Below are positions 3,205 to 34,424 of a stretch of DNA of 64,000 bases, piece after piece; position 1 is the first letter of the stretch; each line of letters opens with the position of its first letter. The notes under the pieces were generated by a model, which was not told the DNA's origin, ran no database searches, and was given only the letters and a program-made list of their open reading frames with translations. A program made the translations under genes and the position numbers. Location: the IMG/VR virus record IMGVR_UViG_3300023238_000006, positions 1-64,000 of that record. One strand, 5' to 3'. This DNA is from a virus (lineage: Duplodnaviria > Heunggongvirae > Uroviricota > Caudoviricetes).

Positions 3205-3258
3205 TGGTTTTATTAGGAGAATAATAGTATATTATCGAGGATTTGTCAAGAGGGGTAT

Positions 3259-4968
3259 TTAGGCGTAGCTGGTGTATGCACTGTCTTCTTCAACATCTGA
3301 GGAGGAGTTGCCCCACATAGCCCTATCTCTGCTATTAGTTGGTTTGAAGCTACCGGGTGATATGTTTGGAAACCTAAGCTCCATCATGCCTAGTTGACTA
3401 ATAACATCTGGAAAGTCATCATGACCTGCAAAGTTGCTCCATGTTGTGTACTTCAATTGGCTCATAGCTTCCTTCATATCAGGAGTGTCAACAAGTTCTA
3501 CTGGAAAGTGTATCTTGTGATTCTGAAACTGTGGTAACATAAACCTAAATCTCTCATGTTTACCCTGGCCACTAGACCTACTGTTAATGCCTTCTGCCCC
3601 AAACTTAGCACCCTTCTGTCTAGCAAAGGTAAACCATGTAGTTCTCTTTAACATCATCTCTTTAAGGGAGAACAGGTGGCTACGCTGCTGTCCATCAATT
3701 TCTATCCCAACCTCTACGTTTTTGCCCTTGCTCTGCCACATCTCCACCATGTTAAACAGCTCATTGTACTGCTCACCAATCCCTTGACGACGTAGACACA
3801 GATCTAGGAGGTAGTAGTCCCTGTTACTATTAACAGCCCAGCACGCTATTGCAGAGAAGTCTGACTTAGCTTCTGATGTAGTTGTGAAGTCGGTAGTTAT
3901 ATAGATGTTGTATGCATCGATCTTCTTGATTAAGTCTTTACGGCTGTACATCTCAATCATGTCTGTAGATATCATCCTATCCTCATCGGAACTAATACGC
4001 AACATCCTCTCTTGGTTAAATGACTTAGTGGACTTAGATGCTATTGCCTGTCTGTATTGTCTTATAACAGCCTCGTACGGATGCATAGCTGGCCAAGCAC
4101 CTTTGAACTCCTCAGCTGTCATATCAGCGGATATACTTTCACAAATAGGTAGCAGCACAGGGGTATATCCTCCACCTGTAAGTGTTTCTACCACAGGATC
4201 CCCAAGGTTGAAGGGAGTAGCTACTGAAAATATTCTTCCTCTAAGCCCCCCTACCAAACCATTCTCAAGGTCACTTGCGATTAGTTCTCTTAGAAGGCTC
4301 ATCTGTACCTCTGAGTAAGCTGCCTGTGTATTTAGAATAACGTCATCCATAATAGCATGATCGTAACGTTCACCATAGTTATCTCGGTTACCACGGATAT
4401 TACCACCTATACCGAGGTATCTAATTAGAAAGGCTCTACTCTTCTCTTTACCAATCCCATTTCTAACGAAGCGTGATTCAGTCTCTGTAAAGTCCATAGA
4501 CTCAAACCAGTTATTACAGAATACACTGTCCTCACACAAAGCCTGGACAGCTTTACTCATAACCTTAGCACCACCCATTGCACTTGCACCTAGAAGCAGG
4601 TGAAACCGAGTCTTATCACCATTAGGTACTACCCCTTTAATGGCACAGTAAATAGGGTAGAAGGCAGTAACTACTGTTGACTTAGCTAAGCCACGAGAAG
4701 CAACTATAGCAACCCTGTGAGGGTTAATAGGGATTGAGTCACATACTTCTTTGGAGTATGGAAATTGTTCTTTAGTAACTTGTCCAAACAGTACATCAAC
4801 CATGAAATAATGGGCTAAGGGCGTAGTAAATTCAAAGTCCTCTCCAGCTACCATTCTCATGATAGCAAAGAACTCTAATGCTTCCTCAGATGGGATGTAA
4901 TTGGGGAAGGAGTAATCAATAGTATTGAGAGCTTCCTCCATATCGAATAAGTGTAAATCTATACTCAT
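3259..4968 (-). CDS. terL: Terminase large subunit (ATPase plus nuclease).
   Basis: 569 aa. P-loop-like VASRGLAKST. C-terminal acidic nuclease-type segment KIDAYNIYITTDFTTTSEAKSDFSAIACWAV...YYLLDL, typical of T4/T7-type large terminases. Confidence 0.7.
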   Translation of the reverse strand: MSIDLHLFDMEEALNTIDYSFPNYIPSEEALEFFAIMRMVAGEDFEFTTPLAHYFMVDVLFGQVTKEQFPYSKEVCDSIPINPHRVAIVASRGLAKSTVVTAFYPIYCAIKGVVPNGDKTRFHLLLGASAMGGAKVMSKAVQALCEDSVFCNNWFESMDFTETESRFVRNGIGKEKSRAFLIRYLGIGGNIRGNRDNYGERYDHAIMDDVILNTQAAYSEVQMSLLRELIASDLENGLVGGLRGRIFSVATPFNLGDPVVETLTGGGYTPVLLPICESISADMTAEEFKGAWPAMHPYEAVIRQYRQAIASKSTKSFNQERMLRISSDEDRMISTDMIEMYSRKDLIKKIDAYNIYITTDFTTTSEAKSDFSAIACWAVNSNRDYYLLDLCLRRQGIGEQYNELFNMVEMWQSKGKNVEVGIEIDGQQRSHLFSLKEMMLKRTTWFTFARQKGAKFGAEGINSRSSGQGKHERFRFMLPQFQNHKIHFPVELVDTPDMKEAMSQLKYTTWSNFAGHDDFPDVISQLGMMELRFPNISPGSFKPTNSRDRAMWGNSSSDVEEDSAYTSYA

Positions 4969-5738
4969 AGCATCTCCTCATCTAGTTCTAGAATATCTCT
5001 ATCAAACAACTCAGAGTTGCCATCCCTTAACAGTGCTTGCCCATCCCACTTGTACACCCTGAACTGCTGTTTAATACGGGTTTCACTATCAATAGCGTCT
5101 TGCCCTACAGCAAAGCTCCATTCCTTAATAACTTCTATCTCGCCCTTGTTGTTACCTTTAAATCTTTCAGCAACGCTGCTGTTAGTTATACCAATTTTGT
5201 AAGCTGGGTGTCCCGCGTATGTAACTTTTAAGTAGTACATAATAGCTGGCAGGTATTTCTTAACCCTGCCGTTATACAGTGTCTTGCAATTACAAGAGTT
5301 ATCTCTACCTAATACATTATCAAGTGTTGAATCTATAGTATCCCCACATGTTAGGCACTCAAGCGTAATGGGCTGGTTAGCTGTAATATACGTAGACCGG
5401 GTGTAATCAAACACCTCCCCAAATTTAGATAGTACTCTAGCTTTAAAGTGTTCAAGAGACCCAGTGTGGAACTTAGTAGCTGCCTCAATACCACACTGAC
5501 TGCACCCAAACTTATAGTGGTTACTAGGAGTCTGCCAAAAACTACCATGAGTGCTACATACCAGCTCAACATTTATCTTGGTGCCTAAATTTATAGCCTT
5601 TGAGTAGTCATAGGTATCTCCATGAAATGATTTGGACTTAGCTTCAAAATTACTAGCAGCATTAGCTAGCCTAGCCTCCCACTTCTTACCCACGGTTGAT
5701 ACCCACATCTTCAAAGTTAATACCCATAACCTGCACAT
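4965..5738 (-). CDS. Putative homing-endonuclease-like protein. It has N-terminal tandem zinc-ribbon repeats (HG-F-Q-P--H---GC--CG) and a C-terminal T5orf172/GIY-YIG-like domain (YYLKV...YKIGIT...R).
   Basis: Motifs THGSFWQTPSNHYKFGCSQCG, LECLTCG and AIMYYLKVTYAGHPAYKIGITNSSVAERF. It is a paralogue of 26797..27846 and 55771..56649. Wedged against the terminase gene, a typical homing-endonuclease position. Confidence 0.55.
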   Translation of the reverse strand: MCRLWVLTLKMWVSTVGKKWEARLANAASNFEAKSKSFHGDTYDYSKAINLGTKINVELVCSTHGSFWQTPSNHYKFGCSQCGIEAATKFHTGSLEHFKARVLSKFGEVFDYTRSTYITANQPITLECLTCGDTIDSTLDNVLGRDNSCNCKTLYNGRVKKYLPAIMYYLKVTYAGHPAYKIGITNSSVAERFKGNNKGEIEVIKEWSFAVGQDAIDSETRIKQQFRVYKWDGQALLRDGNSELFDRDILELDEEML

Positions 5739-6474: not shown

Positions 6475-6721
6475 TCTTATCTCCTATTGTATATGCATAT
6501 AAACTCTTCCCCACCTGGTGAGTACCTAGGTAGCCTTTATCCATTAACTCTCTCTTATACTTGCGATGAGTACTCACACCCATGCCTGTATGGTTCATCA
6601 TCTCTTCATCAGTTACATCTATATCACATCTGTCTAGCACATTAAGCAGGTAGAAGCTTCCTATACTAAGGGTAGACAGTGATAGTAGCCAATCAATAGC
6701 TGATAGCTTTATTACCTTCAT
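6461..6721 (-). CDS. Hypothetical small protein (86 aa).
   Basis: ORF track, same-strand operon. Confidence 0.35.
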   Translation of the reverse strand: MKVIKLSAIDWLLSLSTLSIGSFYLLNVLDRCDIDVTDEEMMNHTGMGVSTHRKYKRELMDKGYLGTHQVGKSLYAYTIGDKNGKD

Positions 6722-6966
6722 AGTAATCCTTATATTATTATAGTGGGAAGTATAGCAGGTAGTTGTTAAAAAGTAAAGGGTGTTGTTGTGAATGCCAGAG
6801 TAGGATCTGGCTAGTGTGGCTAGTTAGGCCTTTAGGATAAGGTATCCATCAAATCAAATCATTGGCGTGTCGTGAGTAACGGTTACGATACTAGTAGACA
6901 TAGTTAGGGCTTCTTCGGTACGGTATGGTTGGCCGATGCCTAGGTGGGAGTATACAAGGGCTAACC

Positions 6967-7040: not shown

Positions 7041-7478
7041 TTAGAATTTAATATCATTAGCTATATCTTCCATATTAATAGTATCTGGCAGTTTATATAT
7101 GGTATCAGGGATAGCACCTTCCAGCACTAGATCGAAAGTAACCTTAGCATCCTCCATAGGAACTACATAGCACTCAGTAGATCCTACCCATGTAGCCTTT
7201 GAGGTATAGCTATAGTTCCTAAAGAAGGACCTAAACACTAGCTCTAACTCAAATGGGTTATCACATTTCCGGTCTCTGATGATCTTAATAGAAGGGGTTC
7301 TACGCTCTTTAGACTTATCATAGATACTTTCACATATCTCCATCAACCGCCTCTTGCTAGATACCCCTGAGCTCTTACCATACTTCATCACTACCATACC
7401 TGTAGGAAGGGTTATCTCCATTAGGTAGAGCCTAAGCTGAGGCTTAGCTACATCCTGACCAACCTGCAGGAATGCCAT
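7041..7478 (-). CDS. Small T5orf172/GIY-YIG-like domain protein (145 aa).
   Basis: LYLMEITLPTGMVVMKYGKSSGVSSKRRLMEI resembles the YxxxI...KIGxT...RR core of the other three T5orf172-like genes in the window. Confidence 0.4.
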   Translation of the reverse strand: MAFLQVGQDVAKPQLRLYLMEITLPTGMVVMKYGKSSGVSSKRRLMEICESIYDKSKERRTPSIKIIRDRKCDNPFELELVFRSFFRNYSYTSKATWVGSTECYVVPMEDAKVTFDLVLEGAIPDTIYKLPDTINMEDIANDIKF

Positions 7479-7856: not shown

Positions 7857-8002
7857 TAGTTACCCCTCTCCATACTATACTTACCCCCATCAGTAATAGT
7901 AGAACATTTAGGGCATATCATAACCCCAAACATCTTAGGTATAGGTAGAACCTTCTCCCCACACCCAGGGCATTCTACTAGTTTATCTAGTACACTACTC
8001 AT
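7856..8002 (-). CDS. Small zinc-ribbon protein (48 aa, MSSVLDKLVECPGCGEKV...CPKCSTITDG...).
   Basis: Manual reverse-complement translation. Two CxxC pairs. Start and stop are coupled to neighbouring genes (TAATG overlap). Confidence 0.4.
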   Translation of the reverse strand: MSSVLDKLVECPGCGEKVLPIPKMFGVMICPKCSTITDGGKYSMERGN

Positions 8003-8005
8003 TGG

Positions 8006-8593
8006 TTACTTCTTTAGTCCGCAGCCAACACATACGCTGAATCTACCAAGGCGGTTATGTATAGCTGTAACCTCTGTAGAAGTGCTACATTTACATTTAC
8101 CTGTTGCTGGTGTAGGCTCTTTACCATCCTCTGGTAATATATCAAATCCTATATACCCTGTGACAGAATCAACACTATGAACAGTATATGTACTGCCATC
8201 GGGGGTACGGATGTAGGTAACACCCAGTGCTACAGCTTCATTAAGATCTAATGAGAACTGTGTACCATCCCACTCTGGAGTATCTGGAAGGTTACTAGTG
8301 ATGACTCCTATAATCCTGCCATCAGGTAGTGTGTGTAGATTACAATCACCAACTAGTGCAGACTCTAGGCTATCCTCTGTAGGAACCTCTGCCAAAATTA
8401 AGTCTTGTGAAGACTTTGGAGCTACTTCTTCTAGGTCTATAATAGTAACTGGTATCTCTACCTCATCAATAACTACAACCTCCACCTTAGCAGCTTCTAC
8501 CGCTGCTCTTACCACTTCCATCTCTTCATCTGATAATACATTATCTGTAGTATCTATATCTACTAGCTTTACATCATTCTTAGCTCTTGGCAT
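8006..8593 (-). CDS. Hypothetical acidic protein (195 aa), first gene of the leftward operon.
   Basis: ORF track. Begins immediately next to the divergent intergenic region. Confidence 0.45.
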   Translation of the reverse strand: MPRAKNDVKLVDIDTTDNVLSDEEMEVVRAAVEAAKVEVVVIDEVEIPVTIIDLEEVAPKSSQDLILAEVPTEDSLESALVGDCNLHTLPDGRIIGVITSNLPDTPEWDGTQFSLDLNEAVALGVTYIRTPDGSTYTVHSVDSVTGYIGFDILPEDGKEPTPATGKCKCSTSTEVTAIHNRLGRFSVCVGCGLKK

Positions 8594-8965
8594 ATGAATC
8601 CTTTTGTTTGTTTGCGGAAGTATACCATAACTATTCTATCCACTATCCTCTCAGACAACTCTCTGGAGGCTCTTGAGCAAACGTAAGGGTTTAGGTAGCT
8701 AACGGTATGGTTGTGTGAAGCAAATGGCCCAGAGGTGGGTTAGAATTATTCCTAGTGGCCTATGTAGATATTAGCTAGTTGTAACTACTCTTAGCTAGTG
8801 CTATTTCTCTTCTGAGTTATCTGCGCAGCTGATGGTGAAGGGGCCTTATGTGCCTTATAGTAATATTTTTATTTTTCAGGAATTGTAGTTGGTATTTCTG
8901 AATTAATCTAGGTAGTGGTTCCCTTATATAGGGGATTTATGGAAATAGCTATTGGCAGCTAAGGG

Positions 8966-8986
8966 GGAGGAGGAGGAGGAGGAGGA
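8966..8986 (+). repeat. (GGA)7 microsatellite inside the polypurine tract.
   Basis: ggaggaggaggaggaggagga. Confidence 0.8.
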
Positions 8987-9300
8987 TGGAGAAGAGGGAG
9001 AGGTATAGTGTGTGTAGGTGGTAGCTAGGCCTTAGCTAGGAGCGGTAGCGACGGTAGGGAAGGTAGAGGGTGGGTGGTGGGGCAGGTAAGTAGGTGTGGT
9101 TGCCTTGAGAGGGAGGGTCCACAAGAGGGTAGTAGGCAGTGGAGATGGTAGGTTCTCAGCTGTTTGGCTTATGGGGATATTTTGTTATTTTTTGGTAGGG
9201 GGTTAGTATAGCCCACACAAACCCACACTGCACCTCCCACCCCCCGCCTAGCTAACAGAGCAAAGGGACCCAAGAAACTTGCCAGTAGTATTAGTTGTAG

Positions 9301-9315
9301 CTCAGCTTAGCTGAG
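9301..9315. promoter_or_regulatory. Perfect 7-1-7 palindrome CTCAGCTTAGCTGAG, a candidate operator upstream of the first rightward gene.
   Basis: Read directly. Lies about 75 nt upstream of the 9388 start. Confidence 0.35.
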
Positions 9316-9387
9316 TACAGTGTGGTGGTACCAGTAGACTAGCTTGCACTCACCTGAGTCGATGAGCTACTACTCAAGGAGTATCAA

Positions 9388-9546
9388 ATGAAGTACACAA
9401 GCCTTAACTATAACAACTATGATGCTAAGTTTGACTTAGATTCATTCGAGGAAGTAATAGAGATAGCAGAGCCTACATACTACCTCAATGAGTACTGGCT
9501 AGTACTTGGAGTGGCAGTAACCTCCTCTTTGAGGAGTAGAGTGTAG
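9388..9546 (+). CDS. Small early protein (52 aa) with a good RBS (caaggagtatcaaATG).
   Basis: Manual translation. SD-like aagga 8 nt upstream. Confidence 0.4.
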   Translation: MKYTSLNYNNYDAKFDLDSFEEVIEIAEPTYYLNEYWLVLGVAVTSSLRSRV

Positions 9547-9668
9547 TGGAAGAATAGAGAACAGACAACATCGGTATCCTCTAACCGTAAGACCTAGCGA
9601 TACTAGAACTCTTTACAAAGCTTGCCGAATGGCTAATCATATTCATTAAACCGTAGGAGGTTACAACA

Positions 9669-9944
9669 ATGGAAGAACTTATACCCACTTTTACACTTAT
9701 CGCACTAGCAATCATGGCAATGTGGATGTTTCCATCTGCAAGATTCCGCAAAAGCATAGGTAACTCACTCACAAGTACTATAGAAGTACAAGCTAAAGCA
9801 ATGGTCCGTAATGCTCAGATGAATAGCATACAAAGTGAAGTGGAGACGATGAATGAGTTCTTAGACCAAGGTCTAACTGAAGCAAGTATAGCAGAAAGTT
9901 GTCAAGCATTTGACAGACTAATCGCTAGAACACCTAAAGCATAA
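9669..9944 (+). CDS. Hypothetical early protein (91 aa).
   Basis: ORF track. RBS aggaggttacaacaATG. Confidence 0.5.
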   Translation: MEELIPTFTLIALAIMAMWMFPSARFRKSIGNSLTSTIEVQAKAMVRNAQMNSIQSEVETMNEFLDQGLTEASIAESCQAFDRLIARTPKA

Positions 9945-9954
9945 GGAGTTAACA

Positions 9955-10311
9955 ATGGGAAGAAGTATACAGCCACCTGTGGCAGCTGTTAGAGCAACTT
10001 GGGACAATCACGTCCAACTTGCTAGTTACTTACAACATAAAGGGCTTACAGCTGACAAGACTGTAGCCTTCTTGAAGGGTAAGGATTACACCCTCAACAA
10101 CCTCAAGTACGAAGCAACTCGTGTATCAGCTGTAATAGCTGGTATTGAACTAAGTACTCCTGTAGATAAAGTCGAGGCGCTAGTTGCCTCAGTAGATTTA
10201 GTAAACTCTGGTCTAGCATCAGGGTCATTGAAGTATACAAAGGCCAAAGGTATCCAAGTAATGCCAATGGCAAAGCCAATAGAGCCACCTATTAACGAGG
10301 TAGCCTACTAA
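9955..10311 (+). CDS. Hypothetical early protein (118 aa).
   Basis: ORF track. RBS aaggagttaacaATG. Confidence 0.5.
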   Translation: MGRSIQPPVAAVRATWDNHVQLASYLQHKGLTADKTVAFLKGKDYTLNNLKYEATRVSAVIAGIELSTPVDKVEALVASVDLVNSGLASGSLKYTKAKGIQVMPMAKPIEPPINEVAY

Positions 10312-10423
10312 TGGTAATATCATACGATGTGTTGTTTGTTGCAACCCTCTGTTTAATATGTGCAGTAGCTTTGGTCATCCTTGACCATAACACCTCACAT
10401 CATCCGTTCTAAAGGAACATACT

Positions 10424-10516
10424 ATGAACAAGCTAACTAACAAGCTAGCCATATACTTAACTGTGTACCCAAATGGTACTGTTTGTCACTTCGCTAAGTG
10501 GCTAAAGACTGTGTAG
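10424..10516 (+). CDS. Very small ORF (30 aa) with an RBS, directly followed by a terminator.
   Basis: taaaggaacatactATG, then a hairpin at 10523. Confidence 0.25.
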   Translation: MNKLTNKLAIYLTVYPNGTVCHFAKWLKTV

Positions 10517-10550: not shown

Positions 10551-10762
10551 AGGGCAACCCACACATCAGCCACAGCAACTGCTCTGCTAAAGCTACCACA
10601 CCGTTGCTGGAGAGGCCTACGGAGTAGGGCTATCCTTCTACCTAGTGCTACCCAGCTACTTGATAGGCCGGCTATCCTTGCCTCATATCCTCTTCGAGGA
10701 TTCGTGTGTGGCGGTATTTAATGGTTATGGTCATTACTTGCTAATAAACTAATGGAGATAAT

Positions 10763-11005
10763 ATGTTCGAAGTAACAATTGCAATGGTACTTGTACCTAT
10801 ATTCTTAATCCTAGCTTGGAACCTCAGAAGAGGGGTGTTCAGTCAAACTGCTATATGGAGAGAGAAGGTCATACTAACTACTAAGGACTCTGAAGTAGAT
10901 TTACAAGAAGACTATAAAGAGTTAGCTGATAAGGTAGTAGCCTCTAAGGCTAAACACGGAGACAAGTGGTTCAAGATGAGTGACATCGATGAGCTAATGA
11001 AGTAG
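10763..11005 (+). CDS. Hypothetical small membrane-anchored protein (80 aa).
   Basis: ORF track. Hydrophobic N-terminus. RBS ggagataatATG. Confidence 0.45.
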   Translation: MFEVTIAMVLVPIFLILAWNLRRGVFSQTAIWREKVILTTKDSEVDLQEDYKELADKVVASKAKHGDKWFKMSDIDELMK

Positions 11006-12600: not shown

Positions 12601-12731
12601 TGACTACTCGTACTCGTACTAGCCGTAGCTACCGTCCACTTCACTCACCTCGTACACCTAAGCCTCTACATTCTCTTCGAGAATTAATGTGTAATGGTTC
12701 CATAACAATCCTTAGAAACTCAAAAGCATAA
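12600..12731 (+). CDS. Small basic Arg/Thr/Ser/Pro-rich peptide (43 aa, MTTRTRTSRSYRPLHSPRTPKPL...).
   Basis: Manual translation. ATAATG start overlap. It overlaps a nucleotide motif that is also found non-coding at 10690. Confidence 0.25.
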   Translation: MTTRTRTSRSYRPLHSPRTPKPLHSLRELMCNGSITILRNSKA

Positions 12732-13495: not shown

Positions 13496-15259
13496 ATGAA
13501 TTTAGAATTAGAACTACCCGAGATAGTAGACTACCTCGACATAAACAACGATACAACAGTTGAGATGTTAACAGCACTCTTCCACCGTATAACTTACAAC
13601 CTAGGGGCTACCAGCCTCACTTACTGGTTAGATAAGTTCACAGACCACAAGCAAGGCAATCGTATGATACTACAGCTATCACTACGAGGAGTAATAGTAA
13701 CTACAGTCAAACACAACTATGCAGAAATAGAAATGTCTAAGCAATGGTTACTACAGAACAACACTCAAGAAGAGTTAGATGCTCTTATCCTTAGCAATAA
13801 GCTTAATAAATATCTACCAATCAGAGCTAACCTTAACAAGCCTCTAGTATCAGACCAAGTTAAGCTATCATCTGGTATCCAAGCTACTGGCCTATCTCGC
13901 CCATCATTCGCTAAAGCTGGCCATAACATATTCACATACGATACAGCTATGATGAGCCTCTACAGAGACGAGATAGTTAAGTTCTCAATCAAAGCTATGG
14001 AGAAGATGGAAGCTAAGCTCCACCGCTCTCTAAGACTACCTGAAGCACACGACTATGGCTCTATCATAGAACAAGCTATAGACCTCATCATAGCTAACTC
14101 TCACCACGAGTATATGCTAGGTAGCCTAGTCCTAGATAGTAGAGGTAGAGCTATATACCAATGCCTTAAAACTATCTTCAATCCAATTTCTAACAAGATG
14201 GCTAGAGCTCTGGTAAAGGCTCCAGGAGAGTTAGTAACAGCAGATAGTGCTAAGGGTGCTTTCCTATTCATAGCTGAAATCTACTCAGGCTTCAACCCTA
14301 ATATCCCAGCTAAGATTGAGCAGGGTATAGACTGCTACGCAGACCGCCTATACCACGAAATAGACGCAGACACTGAAGAAGGCTTAGACTCCTTATTCGA
14401 AAACATATGGTTAGAACGGCTATACGCAGATATGGAAGCTTTCGAAGCCAATCCATACCACCTAGTAACAACTCCACTAGAAGTGGACTTCTCAGCATCA
14501 AACCTAACTATCATAGGACTACTACTAGGGCACACAGACTATGTAGATGACTCTAGATATATGTGGGACATAGATGGCCTTAGCAAGAACCACGTTAAGT
14601 TTGCACAGACTCCATATGTATTTGGTAGCTCAGCCTCAATAAAATCACTATGGGCTAAGAACAAGCTAGACTTCACAGCAACTCAAGTTGACATTATGAG
14701 AACAGCTCAACTAAGAGGTAAGTTTGCTATTGCCAATGAGTTCAAGGACATCATAATCAACCATTGCCATCCAACAGCAGTAATGGAGTTCCATATAGCT
14801 GATGAGAAGTTCAGGGTAGAGTGTAATAAGACTAAGAACATAGGCGAAACTACTAAAAGCTATATAGTCTTAGACTCAATTAGCAACAAGTTCAACCTAA
14901 TCCAGCATACTAACACTCACAAGACACCAGACCTTAAGCAGTTTAGACGCTACCCAGTGACTGGTATCATCCACAATCGCGATAGCTGGTTACTAGACTT
15001 CGTATTCTCAGCACTACCTTGGGGATTACCTATCCACGATGCGGGCATAGTAACTTGGTCAGGGGCAACAACTATGCGAAACAAAGCTGTAGAAGGTATG
15101 ACAATCATACATTCTACTAGACAAGAGACTGTATACAACTACCTTAAATCTATAAACTTAGACACAGCTGGCTTAACAAAGTATGCAAAGCTACTAGGTA
15201 AAGTTGCAGACTTAAACAAAGACAAGACAATGACTATCTCACCGTACTTACTAAAATAG
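13496..15259 (+). CDS. Compact T7-like single-subunit DNA-dependent RNA polymerase (587 aa).
   Basis: Motifs are aligned to T7 RNAP by eye. LVLDSRGRAIY matches DWRGRVY. EVDFSASNLTI matches motif A (AFDGSCSGIQ). TPYVFGSSASI matches motif B (TLAYGS). GLPIHDAGIV matches motif C (HDSFG). The protein is about 200-300 aa shorter at the N-terminus than T7 RNAP. Confidence 0.75.
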   Translation: MNLELELPEIVDYLDINNDTTVEMLTALFHRITYNLGATSLTYWLDKFTDHKQGNRMILQLSLRGVIVTTVKHNYAEIEMSKQWLLQNNTQEELDALILSNKLNKYLPIRANLNKPLVSDQVKLSSGIQATGLSRPSFAKAGHNIFTYDTAMMSLYRDEIVKFSIKAMEKMEAKLHRSLRLPEAHDYGSIIEQAIDLIIANSHHEYMLGSLVLDSRGRAIYQCLKTIFNPISNKMARALVKAPGELVTADSAKGAFLFIAEIYSGFNPNIPAKIEQGIDCYADRLYHEIDADTEEGLDSLFENIWLERLYADMEAFEANPYHLVTTPLEVDFSASNLTIIGLLLGHTDYVDDSRYMWDIDGLSKNHVKFAQTPYVFGSSASIKSLWAKNKLDFTATQVDIMRTAQLRGKFAIANEFKDIIINHCHPTAVMEFHIADEKFRVECNKTKNIGETTKSYIVLDSISNKFNLIQHTNTHKTPDLKQFRRYPVTGIIHNRDSWLLDFVFSALPWGLPIHDAGIVTWSGATTMRNKAVEGMTIIHSTRQETVYNYLKSINLDTAGLTKYAKLLGKVADLNKDKTMTISPYLLK

Positions 15260-18395: not shown

Positions 18396-18878
18396 ATGGG
18401 ACTAATCGTAATAGCAATAATTGTAGCAGGGGTATATTACTGGATTACTAGTAGTACTAACCACATATCTCAGCAACAAGATAACAGTATACTAGAGGAA
18501 TGGGAGGATGAACTCCTCAGACGTAACACAGATGCCTCACAGCCTCCAATTCCCTCTACACCACCTAGGCCCTACCCAAGGTGGGAAGTTGGCTCTAAGG
18601 TACCTACGATTGATTATGACAGCTATATACGGTCAGACGCCTGGCTTAAAGGCCCTGCTAGAAGCTTAGCTTTAGTTAGGGATAGCTTTAGCTGTACTAT
18701 GTGCGGCTCTGGTAACCACATAGAAGTTCATCATATTAACTACTTAACAATGGGGGATGAAGACATAGACTACCTAGCAACACTTTGCAAGTGCTGCCAC
18801 GGCTATACACACAAAGTAGCAGGGAGAGGGGCTGGTAACTACCCACCGCTCCTAAAACCAAAGGACACTACATGTTAA
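18396..18878 (+). CDS. HNH endonuclease with an N-terminal transmembrane segment (160 aa).
   Basis: CTMCGSGNHIEVHHINYL...LCKCCHGYTHK is a canonical HNH/His-Me finger. Confidence 0.65.
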   Translation: MGLIVIAIIVAGVYYWITSSTNHISQQQDNSILEEWEDELLRRNTDASQPPIPSTPPRPYPRWEVGSKVPTIDYDSYIRSDAWLKGPARSLALVRDSFSCTMCGSGNHIEVHHINYLTMGDEDIDYLATLCKCCHGYTHKVAGRGAGNYPPLLKPKDTTC

Positions 18879-20899: not shown

Positions 20900-21825
20900 A
20901 TCTACTACCACTGGGCACTTAGGTGCCTACTATAGTAAATTAAAAGGAAACCTATGGAATATCTAGTAACCCTACATGGAGAAACTCTATGTACACTAAC
21001 AGCAAACAGTTTAGAGCAGGCAGAGGCTATTGCCTTTAGAATGTATGGTTTAGAAGTTGACATAAAGGAAAAGTAATGAAGAGTCTATCAAGACTTAAGT
21101 GTGATGCTTGGTTCTATAGGAATTAGGGTAGTATATTTATAGCTATAGTTGTGTTTGGTGGAGCATTGATTGGTTACCTATTTGGTAACTGTAGATGAGC
21201 TTATTACTCGTAGTTCTATGAGTAGTTGCATTATGTATATTATTAAAAGGATAAGTGATGAAGTATTTTGTAATAGTAACAGAGGAAAATGAAGAGCCTT
21301 GTGAAACTAGAAGTGATGCTGGTATGTTCTCGTATCTTGAACCTTACTTTGTAAATACTACTCATTAGAAGAGGCTTTATTGCCCGTGAATACATCTTAT
21401 TGGAGGGACAATTATACCCCTCTTATGATAGTAACAGTATATGATTACAACTAAAGGAAAAGAGATGAAAGTATATTACATAGGTAAAATGATTGGTGAA
21501 TGCGATGAAAATGACTCTAAATGGTCAATAGAAGGTATCTTTGATTCTAAACAATTAGCATTTTCAAAACATGGTAGAAGATGAATTTTGTATTGAGTTA
21601 GAAATGAATGTTAAATTGCCTTCAGAATTAATAAAACCTCCTGAAGGAACATACTGGTGAAAAATTTATAACAAAATTATAAACTATGATGGTGTAGAAG
21701 TAAAGGATTAAATTAGAACTTAAGTATTAGTATAAACTTATATATAAAGGTTTATTCTTAAGCTTTTTTTATTTGTTACCTAGTATATAATACTATATAA
21801 CAAATAAAAAAAACGGAGAACAAAG
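20900..21825. other. AT-rich (about 30% GC) segment poor in ORFs. It contains a palindromic AT stretch (TTATTTGTTAC...ATAACAAATAA) just upstream of 21826.
   Basis: Composition by eye. Only tiny ORFs. The inverted repeat was read directly. Confidence 0.4.
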
Positions 21826-22365
21826 ATGAATAAAGTAGAATTACAAGAAGCACTAAGACTTCATAAGTTATGGTTAAATGATAAACCTGGTGGAATTAGA
21901 GCTGGTTTAAGTAAGGCTAATTTAAGTAATGCTAATTTAAGTTATACTGTTTTAAGAGGTGCTGATTTAAGAGGTACTAATTTAAGTAATGTTGATTTAA
22001 GTTATACTGATTTAAGAGGTGCTGATTTAAGTAAGGCTAATTTAAGAGGTACTAATTTAAGTTCTACTGATTTAAGAGGTGCTAATTTAAGTTATACTGA
22101 TTTAAGAGGTACTAATTTAAGTAATGTTGATTTAAGATGTGCCGTAGGAAACAACAAAGAAATAAAATCGCTTCAAATAGGTACTTATTTAATCTCTTAT
22201 ACAGCAGTTGTTTTAAATATTGGTTGTGAGTCTCACTCTATCAAAAAGTGGGCTTGTTTCAGTGATGAAAGAATAGCTAGTATGGATGAAGAGGCTTTAG
22301 AGTTTTGGAACTTAAACAAACATATAATTTTAGAGTTATGTAACAGAGGAGAAGGAAATGACTAA
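21826..22365 (+). CDS. Pentapeptide-repeat protein (179 aa) with A(D/N)LSx repeats and a C-terminal domain of about 70 aa. Very AT-rich codon usage.
   Basis: ANLSNANLSYTVLRGADLRGTNLSNVDLSYTDLRGADLSKANLRGTNLSSTDLRGANLSYTDLRGTNLSNVDL. Nucleotide-level internal repeats. Confidence 0.7.
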   Translation: MNKVELQEALRLHKLWLNDKPGGIRAGLSKANLSNANLSYTVLRGADLRGTNLSNVDLSYTDLRGADLSKANLRGTNLSSTDLRGANLSYTDLRGTNLSNVDLRCAVGNNKEIKSLQIGTYLISYTAVVLNIGCESHSIKKWACFSDERIASMDEEALEFWNLNKHIILELCNRGEGND

Positions 22366-23020
22366 TAAAGAAAGATATGAAGCTAACCCTGAGAAGTATG
22401 TAGTTTACTGTAGCTACGATGTTACGTGGTTTAAACATGCCAACCAGGACAATGTAACATTCACAAACTCAGGAACAAAGTATAAGCTAATCCTAGCTTC
22501 TCATTCTCACATTGCTGATTCCATTATAGCTGATGGGAGTGTTGAGGTTGAGCAATACTCCACATTATACAATAAAGAAGGTGATAGTAAAATACTAGAT
22601 TTCACTCTAAAAGCTAAAGACTTCTTTAGTGTATATCAATTAGTATATGACTACAGACTAGCAGATAAGCTAGAGATAGATATACCTGATGGTGTTGATG
22701 TACTAGCAGAACCTAAAGAGGAGAAAGAAGTAGCTATAACAAGAGTTGAAGTAATTGGTTTAGAGGGCAGAGAGTTTGTTAGCCATCTTAAAGGTGGTAC
22801 TTATACCACATCCCTACAAGATGATGGTAGAACTCTAAAGATATTTGAAGAACCAATCCAAAAACCGTGGCACGAATATGAGAATAATTTTCCAGCACTT
22901 ATGTATGATGTATTCCATGAACTATTTGAGATAGTAAACAGTAAAATGGGTATTAATAGCGACCACAGACTAGCTACTAAAGAAGAGGTTATGGCACTAT
23001 ATTATGAAGGTAAGAAGTAA
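22358..23020 (+). CDS. Hypothetical protein (220 aa).
   Basis: ORF track. ATGA overlap with the upstream gene. Confidence 0.5.
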   Translation: MTNKERYEANPEKYVVYCSYDVTWFKHANQDNVTFTNSGTKYKLILASHSHIADSIIADGSVEVEQYSTLYNKEGDSKILDFTLKAKDFFSVYQLVYDYRLADKLEIDIPDGVDVLAEPKEEKEVAITRVEVIGLEGREFVSHLKGGTYTTSLQDDGRTLKIFEEPIQKPWHEYENNFPALMYDVFHELFEIVNSKMGINSDHRLATKEEVMALYYEGKK

Positions 23021-26521: not shown

Positions 26522-26812
26522 ATGGAAACATGTAAAGACTTCATCTTAAAGATGACACAAATGGATAAAGCGGAGCAATTCGTAATAGCAGGTATAGTAC
26601 ATAGCTGGACACCAGAGTCCTCAATAGGTTCAGTAGTTATTAAGACTACTGATATGAGCAGTGCAGATGCTAATAAGTTTATTAAAGGCATTAAGACCCT
26701 AACAGCTAAAGGCTTAGTACGTAGAATTAAGAGGTCTCATTATATGATGCACCCTAAAACTTTAGTACCTAGAGATAAAGAACTCGCTATGGAGACATGG
26801 GAGGGGCTGTAA
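26522..26812 (+). CDS. Hypothetical small protein (96 aa), possibly DNA-binding.
   Basis: ORF track. Basic C-terminal half. Confidence 0.45.
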   Translation: METCKDFILKMTQMDKAEQFVIAGIVHSWTPESSIGSVVIKTTDMSSADANKFIKGIKTLTAKGLVRRIKRSHYMMHPKTLVPRDKELAMETWEGL

Positions 26813-27846
26813 TGGCTAGAAAATTGCTACCAGCGGATATCTTACAAAGATTCATAACCACACATGGGCAAACCTATGACTACACTAACAGTGATATAAC
26901 TACTAGAACAACAAAAATCTCAATAAGATGCAGGGTTCACGGGCCTTTTACACAGATGCCTAAAGAGCATATGCTGGGACAAGGATGCCCTAAGTGTGGG
27001 CATTTAGCCACAGCGGCTGCTTTAAGGCACTCTCAAGAAGAATTTGTACTAAAGGTGCAGGTAATCCACAATAACAGGTATGACTACTCATTAGTGAAGT
27101 ATACGTCTGATGCTGATAGCATTGATATAATTTGCAACACTCACGGTGTATTCTCACAAATAGCCTCATCCCATGTCCAAGGAAGTGGGTGCCCTAGGTG
27201 TGCAATTGAGAAAACACATAGTGAGGCTACGTATACAACTGCTGAATTCATCGAAAAAGCTAGTGTAAAACATAGTAATTATTACACATACCCAGAGACT
27301 AACTATGTTAAAGGTACTGTTAAAGTGGTGATAACATGCCCTGTTCATGGGACTTTTCAACAAACACCAGTGGCACACCTAACAGGCCAGGGGTGCAAAG
27401 TGTGTGTCACTGCAGAAAGAGGGCTAAAAACCAGAAACTCAACAGCTAACTTTATAGAGCAGGCAGGTAAAGTGCATGGTAATAAATACTGTTATGCGAA
27501 TACCTCTTATGTACTATCTGTTGAAAAAGTTACTATTACATGCCCTATACACGGGGACTTCACGCAGACTCCTACTAATCATCTGTATGGTTATGGATGT
27601 AGTAGATGTGGTGTGGTAAAATCAAATAAAAGGTTTCACCACATACCCACAACGCTTTACTACTTTAAAATAAAAGATTGTTGGAAAGTGGGCATAACAG
27701 TATTTGATGTAAAAACACGTTACAACACTGTGGATCACTCCAATATTAGTGATTTGACAACATGGAAATTCTCATCAGGCAAAGAAGCTTATGAGTATGA
27801 GCAGAATATCATATCACTTAACAAAGAACATGCCTATACGGGTTAA
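26797..27846 (+). CDS. Putative homing-endonuclease-like protein with four tandem zinc-ribbon repeats (HG-F-Q-P--H--G-GCP-C) and a C-terminal T5orf172/GIY-YIG-like domain.
   Basis: VHGPFTQMPKEHMLGQGCPKCG, THGVFSQIASSHVQGSGCPRCA, VHGTFQQTPVAHLTGQGCKVCV, IHGDFTQTPTNHLYGYGCSRCG, then LYYFKIKDCWKVGIT. Confidence 0.55.
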   Translation: MGGAVMARKLLPADILQRFITTHGQTYDYTNSDITTRTTKISIRCRVHGPFTQMPKEHMLGQGCPKCGHLATAAALRHSQEEFVLKVQVIHNNRYDYSLVKYTSDADSIDIICNTHGVFSQIASSHVQGSGCPRCAIEKTHSEATYTTAEFIEKASVKHSNYYTYPETNYVKGTVKVVITCPVHGTFQQTPVAHLTGQGCKVCVTAERGLKTRNSTANFIEQAGKVHGNKYCYANTSYVLSVEKVTITCPIHGDFTQTPTNHLYGYGCSRCGVVKSNKRFHHIPTTLYYFKIKDCWKVGITVFDVKTRYNTVDHSNISDLTTWKFSSGKEAYEYEQNIISLNKEHAYTG

Positions 27847-31489: not shown

Positions 31490-32323
31490 ATGTTTAAAGA
31501 CAAAACAATTGCCATATACGACATTGAAAGTCCTTGGATAACTGATGCAGGAATCTCTGCCTTAACCCAAATATATTGTATAGGGGTGGTAACACTACTA
31601 AATGGCAATATCATAGATAAGAAGATGTATACCGAACACTGGACTACCTACTCAGATGGTTCATTAGTAGAATGTATGACTGCATTAAACTCTGCAGACA
31701 TTCGTGTAGCATTCAACAACATTGGATTCGATGACGTTGTAATGTCTAACGTTATAGGTGTAGGGATGCCTATAATATCTAGCACTCTGGACTTCAACTC
31801 CTTAGACTTAATCATATGCGCTAAGCTATGCTACAGCAAAGATGAACTAATGGCTATAGATATAGAGCTAAACCTAGATAAAGCCTTATGGGGTTCTTAC
31901 TCCTTACGAGCCTTTGGAGCTCGTCTAGGCAACGCTAAGATGCACTTCGATGAATTCGATGGTGGACTTACAGAAGACCTCTGTACGTACTGTATACAGG
32001 ATTGTGTGGTAACTGCAGACCTGTTTATACACCTGACTCAAAAAGAAAACTTTCCGATAGCTGCTGTACTAACAATAGAACATAAAGCTAGCACAATCAT
32101 CCAAGAGCAGACATTCCACGGATTTTATATTGATATAACTAAGACCAGAGCCCTTAACACTAAACTTCTCAAAGAGAAGCTAGAGATAGCTACTGAACTA
32201 AGCAAGACCTTTATGCCCAAATGGCTACCAGACGGTAAGGTACTTACCTATAAAAAGAAAAGTATAACTAGGAAGTTTCTTCCTAACAACAGTTACATTC
32301 CCCTACTGGGCACAAAGGTTTAA
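31490..32323 (+). CDS. Family A (T7-like) DNA polymerase, N-terminal fragment: 3'-5' proofreading exonuclease domain plus the start of the thumb (277 aa).
   Basis: Exo I IAIYDIES. Exo II FNNIGFDD (T7 FHNGHKYD). Exo III YCIQDCVVTADLF (T7 YNVQDVVVTKALL). Collinear with T7 gp5 residues about 1-300. Confidence 0.8.
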   Translation: MFKDKTIAIYDIESPWITDAGISALTQIYCIGVVTLLNGNIIDKKMYTEHWTTYSDGSLVECMTALNSADIRVAFNNIGFDDVVMSNVIGVGMPIISSTLDFNSLDLIICAKLCYSKDELMAIDIELNLDKALWGSYSLRAFGARLGNAKMHFDEFDGGLTEDLCTYCIQDCVVTADLFIHLTQKENFPIAAVLTIEHKASTIIQEQTFHGFYIDITKTRALNTKLLKEKLEIATELSKTFMPKWLPDGKVLTYKKKSITRKFLPNNSYIPLLGTKV

Positions 32324-34348: not shown

Positions 34349-34424
34349 GTACCATTAGCTTAATCGGTAAAAAGCGTCGACTATTAAAACATAAGATACT
34401 GGTTTGAATCCAGTATGGTACACA
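34349..34424 (+). tRNA. tRNA-like element with acceptor GTACCAT/ATGGTAC, U8, a D-arm GCTT-AATCGGTAAA-AAGC containing GG, and a T-arm ACTGG-TTTGAAT-CCAGT. The anticodon stem does not pair.
   Basis: Manual folding. Probable degenerate or pseudo-tRNA. Confidence 0.2.

Follow-up and report, generated by a model that had tools for sequence, protein, structure and literature searches.

A gap at the strand switch of an N4-like phage

We have analyzed a 64,000-nucleotide (nt) stretch of DNA from an uncultured tailed phage (IMG/VR record IMGVR_UViG_3300023238_000006, positions 1 to 64,000; here termed the window), and specifically the gap at positions 8594-9387. The gap parts leftward packaging and structural genes from rightward genes. 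It contains no open reading frame (ORF) of more than 36 amino acids (aa), in agreement with an initial annotation that had described an ORF-free region between the two arms, and its sequence is identical across four independent assemblies. The annotation had also listed a (GGA)7 repeat (8966-8986), the run GGGTGGGTGGTGGGG (9068-9082), a C-rich block and a perfect 7-1-7 palindrome CTCAGCTTAGCTGAG (9301-9315), and had suggested a replication origin, a packaging or terminal-repeat boundary, or a promoter region regulated by a G-quadruplex or R-loop. These sequences are all present, the C-rich block reading CCCACCCCCCGCC at 9236-9248.

The region had further been called a polypurine tract that is nearly free of C. 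Between 8940 and 9215 the composition is A 0.23, C 0.087, G 0.44 and T 0.24; C is indeed depleted, but polypurine is a misnomer for DNA that is 67% purine and 24% T. The 250 nt starting at 8953 contain 117 G, compared with 49.6 ± 7.7 over the 64 kb (z ~8.7), and have a G-minus-C excess of 98 where the next best segment of the 64 kb has 46.

The flanking genes relate the phage to coliphage N4. TerL (3259-4968, leftward) matches N4-like phages, with 29-32% identity, and the adjoining 262-aa gene is similar to N4 gp69. The counterparts of N4 gp24, DNA polymerase, gp43, TerL, gp69 and the C-terminus of the virion RNA polymerase (vRNAP) keep the N4 order and orientation. The overall plan is also that of N4, with a rightward early and middle arm, a leftward late arm, TerL and gp69 near the right end, and the vRNAP gene at the convergent switch. 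The rightward arm extends past the window and meets the leftward vRNAP gene at ~71.5 kb; the virion polymerase gene of N4 has the same position, as the last one of the leftward arm. Judged by these similarities the window phage is a distant N4-like phage, from a lineage of ~97 kb that keeps the N4 genome plan. The window belongs to a metagenome contig of 97,147 bp. No DNA-level match to the window was found among phage isolates. We regard the lineage as new; its genome is larger and its virion polymerase probably split. The kind of element examined here, an end junction with hairpin early promoters, is already known.

The C-terminal 349 aa encoded by the gene that closes the leftward arm match phrog_2206 'virion RNA polymerase' (E = 8e-55), and the same segment aligns with N4 gp50 (E = 3e-8). 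In the relatives L068 (495-11041) and L067 (7-11032) the virion polymerase is split into two ORFs, of 2058 + 1456 aa and 2332 + 1345 aa respectively. The polymerase part of the family profile (phrog_2206 positions 772-1958) is covered by the adjacent ORF, the first of the pair. The 1379-aa product of the window phage corresponds to the second ORF, and its virion polymerase is probably split too.

In N4, TerL (gp68) and gp69 are leftward and lie ~1.3 kb short of the right end, whereas rightward transcription of the early genes begins at the left end. Joined head to tail, these ends reproduce the layout of the window, so that both physical ends, and with them the start of the terminal repeat, are expected in the gap. 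Phages of the N4 type have short direct terminal repeats (~0.4-0.7 kb) with a defined left end. N4 gp1 and the 91-aa product of the first rightward gene of the window do not align.

The predicted cut-site module and left end

Orthologous gaps were collected from 11 other lineages, found via TerL and a conserved 145-aa protein (7041-7478 in the window), the two proteins being 42-69% identical in these lineages. A composite element is present in all 12 lineages. It begins with tandem 8-9-bp GGCTTAT-like repeats, a T-rich run of ~20 nt and a G-rich block of 10-12 nt that is often GTGAGG. There follow an invariant AGTAT, 29 variable C-rich nucleotides, (T/C)ACCCCCC and, after ~19 nt, GGGACCC or GGTACC. 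In the window the first part (module B, 9166-9210, + strand) comprises GGCTTATGGGG, the T-rich run, GGTAGGGGGT and TAGTATA (9204-9210), and would form the left side of the cut. The predicted start of the genome and of the terminal repeat (9211-9271, + strand) is C-rich and G-poor, with ACCCCCC at 9239-9245 and GGGACCC at 9265-9271. Runs of at least six C or six G occur six times in the window, and usually once in this orientation in the locus of each relative.

The same arrangement is found at the ends of cultured phages. The GenBank record of N4 contains one copy of the repeat, so that joining its end to its start gives the concatemer junction. This reads ..TTTTTT..GTGAGTTCAGTATT / TGGTGGGGCTACACC.., with 31 nt from the cut to a run of C9. 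The repeat of LUZ7 starts at ..GCAGTACTT / CAG.. (28 nt, C7), that of LIT1 at ..GCAGTACT / TCAG.. (29 nt, C7, then GGTACC), that of CB1 at ..TTTTTTATAGTGA..CTCAACT / TAC.. (30 nt, C6) and that of Axy11 at ..GTGAGGGTGTGGGGTAT / GTG.. (30 nt, C7). The predicted counterpart in the window is TAGTATA (9204-9210) / G9211.., with 29 nt to C6 (9240-9245). In all five isolates, then, the repeat starts right after ..GTA(T/C)T, 28-31 nt before a run of six to nine C, and the layout of module B, with a T-run, GTGA(G) and ..GTAT, is also seen at the N4, CB1 and Axy11 junctions. The 64 kb of N4 that we scanned contain a single C6+/G6+ run, which is the terminal C-run, and the junction is the one place where the full motif is found. 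The ends of LUZ7 and LIT1 were mapped by run-off sequencing (record notes; PMC3715699) and the repeat of CB1 was estimated from read depth (PMC6027278). In the N4-like phage IME11 read pile-ups begin at the N4-equivalent TGGCTGGGGCTACACC (PMC3896407).

We have placed the left end of the window phage at 9211 ± 2 because the motif sits at the annotated repeat starts of the isolates; a left physical end at ~9211 is a prediction from homology. Of the possibilities raised by the initial annotation, the packaging or terminal-repeat boundary is thus the one that gains support, both from the synteny with N4 and from a signature common to five isolates with annotated repeats.

The strand asymmetry that had been pointed out is real, and it is family-wide at these junctions. 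When the 12 lineages are anchored on AGTAT, there is an excess of G over C before the cut and of C over G after it. Over the preceding 160 nt G is 0.25-0.35 and C 0.05-0.12, while over the following 40 nt C averages 0.30-0.55. N4 has the same switch, with C rising from 0.08 before the cut to 0.38 after it, and the 100 nt upstream of the cut in LIT1 have G 0.39 and C 0.09. That N4-like phages have this end signature and skew switch in common is not described in any of the literature searched, which did not cover the 1988 paper on the N4 ends, and we claim no priority. The combination of (T/C)AGTA(T/C), ~30 nt, a C-run and a skew switch could mark the left terminus across N4-like phages where there are no reads, and it points to a conserved, undissected step of end formation.

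Two structural ideas for the module were set aside. AGTAT is not the loop of a conserved hairpin, since its flanks are unpaired in most lineages, and pairing of the C-run with downstream G runs is not conserved. The cut-site 8-mer AGTATAGC recurs at 9885-9892, 680 nt to the right of the predicted left end, where it falls near the 3' end of the first early gene (91 aa), and the right end of N4 likewise falls in the 3' part of gp1. The recurrence has no counterpart in the relatives, so as a right repeat boundary it is a lead only.

Hairpin motifs in the early region

We scanned the window for perfect hairpins with a stem of at least 6 bp and a 3-nt loop. Four of these share a downstream block T-N3-GTGTRRYGG. 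Each of the four is intergenic, has the + orientation, precedes rightward genes and lies no more than 3.5 kb from the predicted end. Pe1 (9301-9328) is CTCAGC-tta-GCTGAG followed by TACA and GTGTGGTGG, with a predicted start at ~9319-9320. Pe2 (9522-9549) is CTCCTC-ttt-GAGGAG, TAGA and GTGTAGTGG, and lies ~130 nt upstream of the 91-aa gene (9669). Pe3 (10687-10714) is ATCCTC-ttc-GAGGAT, TCGT and GTGTGGCGG, ~60 nt upstream of the gene at 10763. Pe4 (12670-12697) is ATTCTC-ttc-GAGAAT, TAAT and GTGTAATGG, upstream of genes encoding 209 and 587 aa.

The early promoters of N4 have a stem of 5-7 bp, a 3-nt loop with a purine at its center on the template strand, and ~4 bases between the stem and the start (PMC4496689). 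Read from the N4 sequence, P1 (GTTGC-ttc-GCAAC-ttat-G) lies at +90 and P2 (AAGAAGC-tcc-GCTTCTT-tt-G) at 557. Initiation by the N4 vRNAP is resistant to rifampicin and depends on gyrase and SSB. The window hairpins have this architecture, with 6-bp stems, loops of TTA, TTT, TTC and TTC, and A at the loop center of the template strand. They are also located as expected for such promoters, at the left genome end, with the polarity of the early genes and upstream of early ORFs. Pe1 is at +91 from the predicted end, compared with +90 for P1 of N4. Relatives contain comparable elements. L031 has two analogous hairpins, each followed by GAGTARTGG, and a model built from the four window sites finds both of these at ~21 bits; in L010 and L022 the hairpin that lies at +122 to +140 is of another kind.

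We therefore differ from the initial annotation over the palindrome at 9301-9315. It had been regarded as operator-like, but belongs to a set of four copies of a motif of the N4 hairpin-promoter type. The four hairpins are predicted to be early promoters for the virion RNA polymerase, a role that their architecture, polarity, number and position fit far better than that of an operator.

As in N4 P1-P3, the window motifs have a 3-nt loop with a purine at the template loop center, ~4 nt from the stem to a G start, and a rightward cluster at the left end before the early genes (PMC4496689, PMC3715699), and the 6-bp stem falls in the 5-7 bp range of N4. They differ in that these predicted promoters number four instead of three, in having T-rich loops (TTA, TTT, TTC) where N4 has a GC-rich heptamer, in the absence of the N4 -10G and -8G, and in a conserved +1 to +9 block GTGTRRYGG that has no counterpart in N4.

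A fifth, weaker hairpin-like site, CTTCTC-ttt-GAGAAG with tttaGTGTT, is found on the - strand at 32149-32191 and scores 30 bits with the four-site model. It lies inside a + strand ORF (31490-32323), and could be a chance occurrence, an antisense start or a priming site. Perfect hairpins of the type scanned for number 52 in the whole window, compared with 19.4 ± 3.6 in mononucleotide shuffles, an excess of short inverted repeats.

The left part of the gap and the reading of the whole

Close to the left edge of the gap there is a predicted late-operon promoter (module L, 8619-8627, - strand), with an extended -10 element TGGTATACT ~25 nt before the ATG (8593) of a 195-aa gene. The 195-aa protein has no homologues in isolates or IMG/VR. 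A TGnTATAMT or TATACT element occurs at the same place in all the relatives that were read, and there is a second copy of the extended -10 at 6757, before the gene starting at 6721. The late promoters of N4 are used by the host sigma-70 RNA polymerase (PMC4496689), and by its sequence the element at 8619-8627 fits a late promoter of this type. Further into the gap lies module A (8840-8899, + strand), comprising tandem GCCTTAT (8843-8849 and 8852-8858), a T-rich run (8863-8876) and TTGTAG..GGTAT. This is a partial second copy of module B that lacks the C-run, and forms a direct repeat with 9165-9190. Module A is present in L008, L011, L013, L022, L023, L026, L028 and L031. Two further promoter assignments were rejected. 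A sigma-54 reading of CTCTGG..TTGC motifs near 8661, noticed by eye in L008 and L010, fails as the spacing is not retained in the window, and a Bacteroidetes-type promoter (TAnnTTTG) in the T-runs fails as the length of the T-run varies.

Between modules A and B lies the G-rich, C-poor tract (8950-9165, + strand; G 0.477, C 0.088), which holds (GGA)7, GGTAG and TAGCTA repeats and the GGGTGGGTGGTGGGG run. A co-occurring strain, L061 (sample ERZ27316061), was compared with the window over 8710-10434. The differences are confined to 8964-9083 and a single-nucleotide polymorphism at 9129. In L061 (GGA)7 is reduced to ~(GGA)3, 43 nt are absent and GGGTGGGTGGTGGGG is replaced by GGAGCGGAGGGGTGGAG. 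The strain thus loses both (GGA)7 and the G-run while the flanks are identical, and therefore the named motifs are not under sequence-level constraint and the tract is a hypervariable spacer. The L061 tract is 191 nt long compared with 216 in the window, and it retains G 0.435 and C 0.105. Unlike the named motifs, the composition of the tract seems to be under constraint. The relatives have 45-170 nt of G/T-rich DNA at this position, or an HNH gene (L013), and the window is extreme among them with 46% G over 250 nt compared with 14-33%. An exact-pattern search of IMG/VR for the G run gave no match.

The HNH gene of L013 (749-1573, + strand of the locus) is a homing-endonuclease gene with its own module-A-like upstream region, inserted between the two modules. 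The junction site accepts mobile DNA, as this insertion demonstrates. The palindromic hexamer TAGCTA occurs seven times in the gap (8696-9255) where 1.1 copies are expected, often as (T/G)TAGCTA(G/A)G and in pairs 11 or 20 bp apart, and is retained in the tract of the strain variant.

The reading that we favor is that the gap at 8594-9387 is the concatemer junction of an N4-like phage, carrying the left end, the start of the terminal repeat and hairpin promoters for the virion RNA polymerase. We put its probability at roughly 0.72. It builds on observed homology, synteny, conservation and strain variation. From left to right the junction would begin with a host-type extended -10 promoter for the leftward late (packaging and structural) operon. 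This would be followed by ~580 nt of 'right-end unique' DNA that does not code for protein and has little C on its top strand; it includes the strain-variable G-rich tract, which would be the last unique DNA before the right terminal repeat. Next would come the conserved cut-site module with its T-run, GGTAGGGGGT and TAGTATA, where terminase or the end-processing machinery would cut at TAGTATA/G. The left physical end at ~9211 would open the direct terminal repeat with a C-rich stretch that has the invariant C6 29 nt inside. The first of the four DNA-hairpin early promoters would then lie at +91, and be read by the injected virion RNA polymerase. The G tract probably acts through composition and length, as a C-free, hairpin-poor spacer beside the cut, and not through (GGA)7 or a G-quadruplex.

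The predicted end resembles those of N4 and the other Schitoviridae (LUZ7, LIT1, CB1 and Axy11) in its position relative to TerL/gp69 and the early genes. The likeness extends to the upstream T-run and GTGAG-like block, ..GTA(T/C)T before the end, the C6-9 run 28-31 nt inside, the change from G-over-C to C-over-G, and a first hairpin promoter ~90 nt in. There are also differences. The end of the window phage is a prediction from sequence, and its genome has ~97 kb (relatives 82-119 kb) compared with 70-76 kb. Much more non-coding DNA precedes the predicted cut, the G tract is extreme and varies between strains, and module A is an additional, partial module. In LUZ7 there are 29 extra small genes just before the right repeat (PMC3715699). 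Lineage-specific DNA before the right repeat is common to LUZ7 and the present group, where it takes the form of the HNH gene in L013 and the variable tract in the window, but the window insert is non-coding, low-complexity DNA and not genes. The T7 concatemer junction also has a short direct terminal repeat bounded by specific cuts, as is predicted here, but its terminase and polymerase belong to other, or very distant, families. C-run and GGTACCTAAA-like strings in L023 and L026 may resemble the T7 left end, which is offered as a lead only.

Several points weigh against the junction reading. The terminus and terminal repeat of the window phage are predictions from homology, and among the isolates the repeat boundaries of CB1 and Axy11 come from record annotation or read depth and not from direct end mapping. 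In other samples, short contigs stop (8818, 8892) or begin (8877, 9164, 9166) at the edges of the G tract and not at 9211, as would be expected from strain heterogeneity or from poor coverage of DNA of this kind. TAGTATA is also a symmetric -10-like sequence, so module B might be read as a host RNA polymerase promoter. The bases -10G and -8G contacted in N4 are not kept, the template strand of the four hairpins having T, A, G and G at -10 and G, T, T and T at -8. The promoter specificity must therefore differ from that of N4. A partial match to the N4 contacts is present, with template -11 = A and -9 = C. The polymerase domain of vRNAP is seen in the relatives only, the DNA analyzed from the window phage covering the C-terminal part, and BLAST gave no match to the N4 RNA polymerase II (RNAPII) subunits gp15 and gp16.

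In N4, RNAPII is a T7-like heterodimer of gp15 and gp16 that transcribes the middle genes. In the window, the 587-aa protein (13496-15259, + strand) gives weak alignments (E = 0.14-0.3) to N4 gp15 (DSRGR/DKRGR) and to motif A of gp16 (VDFSASNL/LDATSSGL), the latter aligning VDFSASNLTIIG with LDATSSGLQILA. Its gene is downstream of hairpin Pe4. On these alignments the protein may be a fused, single-chain RNAPII; it has no Pfam or PDB match.

Other explanations of the gap can be weighed against the same data. One is a replication origin, in which the T-rich blocks unwind, the GCCTTAT or TAGCTA repeats are initiator sites, and the G-rich non-template strand stabilizes an R-loop primer. Tandem 8-9-bp repeats do adjoin ~20-nt T-rich runs in two modules, TAGCTA is over-represented, and the strongest G-over-C stretch of the window is here. 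Moreover, priming from a hairpin at the 3' terminus is stated for N4 (PMC3896407), so ends and origin may coincide. Yet nothing upstream of the G tract is recognizable as a rightward promoter, the tract varies in sequence and length between near-identical strains and is short or replaced in the relatives, and the conserved parts are accounted for by homology to mapped genome ends. A cumulative GC-skew plot, a check that the initial annotation had proposed, also speaks against it, showing no more than a local bump located at the strand switch. With no specific support for it, we consider an origin improbable. The AT-rich stretch at 20.9-21.8 kb was considered as an alternative origin; it contains small ORFs and one long AT palindrome.

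We regard it as quite improbable that this is an ordinary divergent region read by host RNA polymerase, with module B a bidirectional promoter (symmetric -10 TAGTATA), modules A and L leftward promoters and the palindrome an operator. TAGTAT/TATACT does supply A-11 and T-7 on either strand, the extended -10 promoter of module L is clear, and in L013 a copy of module A is directly upstream of the minus-strand HNH endonuclease ORF. Both flanking RNAs would be C-rich and G-poor, and so Rho-loading-like. But module B lacks a conserved -35 or TG element, and the same motif is found exactly at the mapped ends of isolates from very different hosts. The module from T-run to TAGTAT is essentially unique to the gap, with loose regular-expression matches at 3208, 21764-21813 and 49111 (+) and at 22612 and 51805 (-), and a palindrome that is one of four copies with a conserved downstream block is unexpected for an operator.

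Least probable is that the G tract is itself a functional element, either a G-quadruplex or GGA-repeat structure, an R-loop former or a CsrA-type GGA-rich RNA sponge. The tract does contain ~13 GGA triplets and many G runs, and its G-rich composition is kept in the strain variant and partly in the relatives and LIT1. There is one relaxed G-quadruplex motif, with an 8-nt loop, at 9057-9082. But the G-quadruplex motif that had been reported comes down to three runs of three or more G, and no canonical motif (four such runs with loops of 1-7 nt) exists on either strand of the whole window. The reduction of (GGA)7 and replacement of the G-quadruplex-like run in L061, with 1.5 kb of flanks identical, is difficult to reconcile with such a function. 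Shuffled sequences are predicted to fold at least as well as the RNA of 8900-9300 (z = +0.8), no Rfam family matches, and no known promoter would transcribe the tract rightward. A promoter regulated by a G-quadruplex or R-loop, as had been suggested, thus finds no support in these data, and the strain-variable (GGA)7 and G-run should not be read as regulatory G-quadruplexes.

A broader proposal starts from the junction reading. Throughout the N4-like phages, the G/C strand switch, the fixed C-run and the C-free spacer might together take an active part in forming the genome ends, which we think unlikely. A strand-asymmetric signal would then position terminase nicking, or stall a polymerase for duplication of the repeat, and the G tract would tune it. 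If true, composition and spacing, more than sequence, would define this packaging signal, of which we found no description in the literature searched. The junction reading itself gives a testable prediction of the genome end and four early promoters for an uncultured ~97-kb N4-like lineage of Antarctic-lake-type metagenomes, and helps to orient and annotate contigs.

The remaining features are minor. A 52-aa ORF (9388-9546, + strand) with an AAGGAG ribosome-binding site adjoins the gap. It is called in some assemblies only, has no family match, and is shifted out of frame by a 1-nt insertion at 9511 in two strain variants; it is probably not a real gene. A search of Rfam 15 gave nothing above chance in 8000-10000, and a known RNA or small gene in the gap was rejected, there being no Rfam match, no tRNA, no ORF of 37 aa or more, and no fold better than shuffles. 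Elsewhere, a tRNA at 34349-34422 (+ strand) scores 46.7 bits, above the gathering score, and is the only Rfam match in the whole window; ARAGORN called none in the window. In the early leaders of L023 (~3455-3391) and L029 (~3619-3554; both on the minus strand of the locus, with coordinates read by eye) a short conserved peptide ORF is shared, encoding MHTVASDGTVTVTRPL.. and MWTVDTSGVVTVIRPL.. respectively, each with a ribosome-binding site. The long AT-rich palindrome (21764-21813, TTTTTTTATTTGTTACCTAGTATA / TAATACTATATAACAAATAAAAAAAA) lies in the stretch of small ORFs at 20.9-21.8 kb, which is 30% GC, and the gene just after it has 15-nt (pentapeptide-like) tandem repeats at 21901-22142. Homing-endonuclease-like genes of the T5orf172/DUF723 and HNH types are found at 4965-5738 (-), 26797-27846 (+) and 18396-18878 (+), one of them between the gp69-like gene and TerL.

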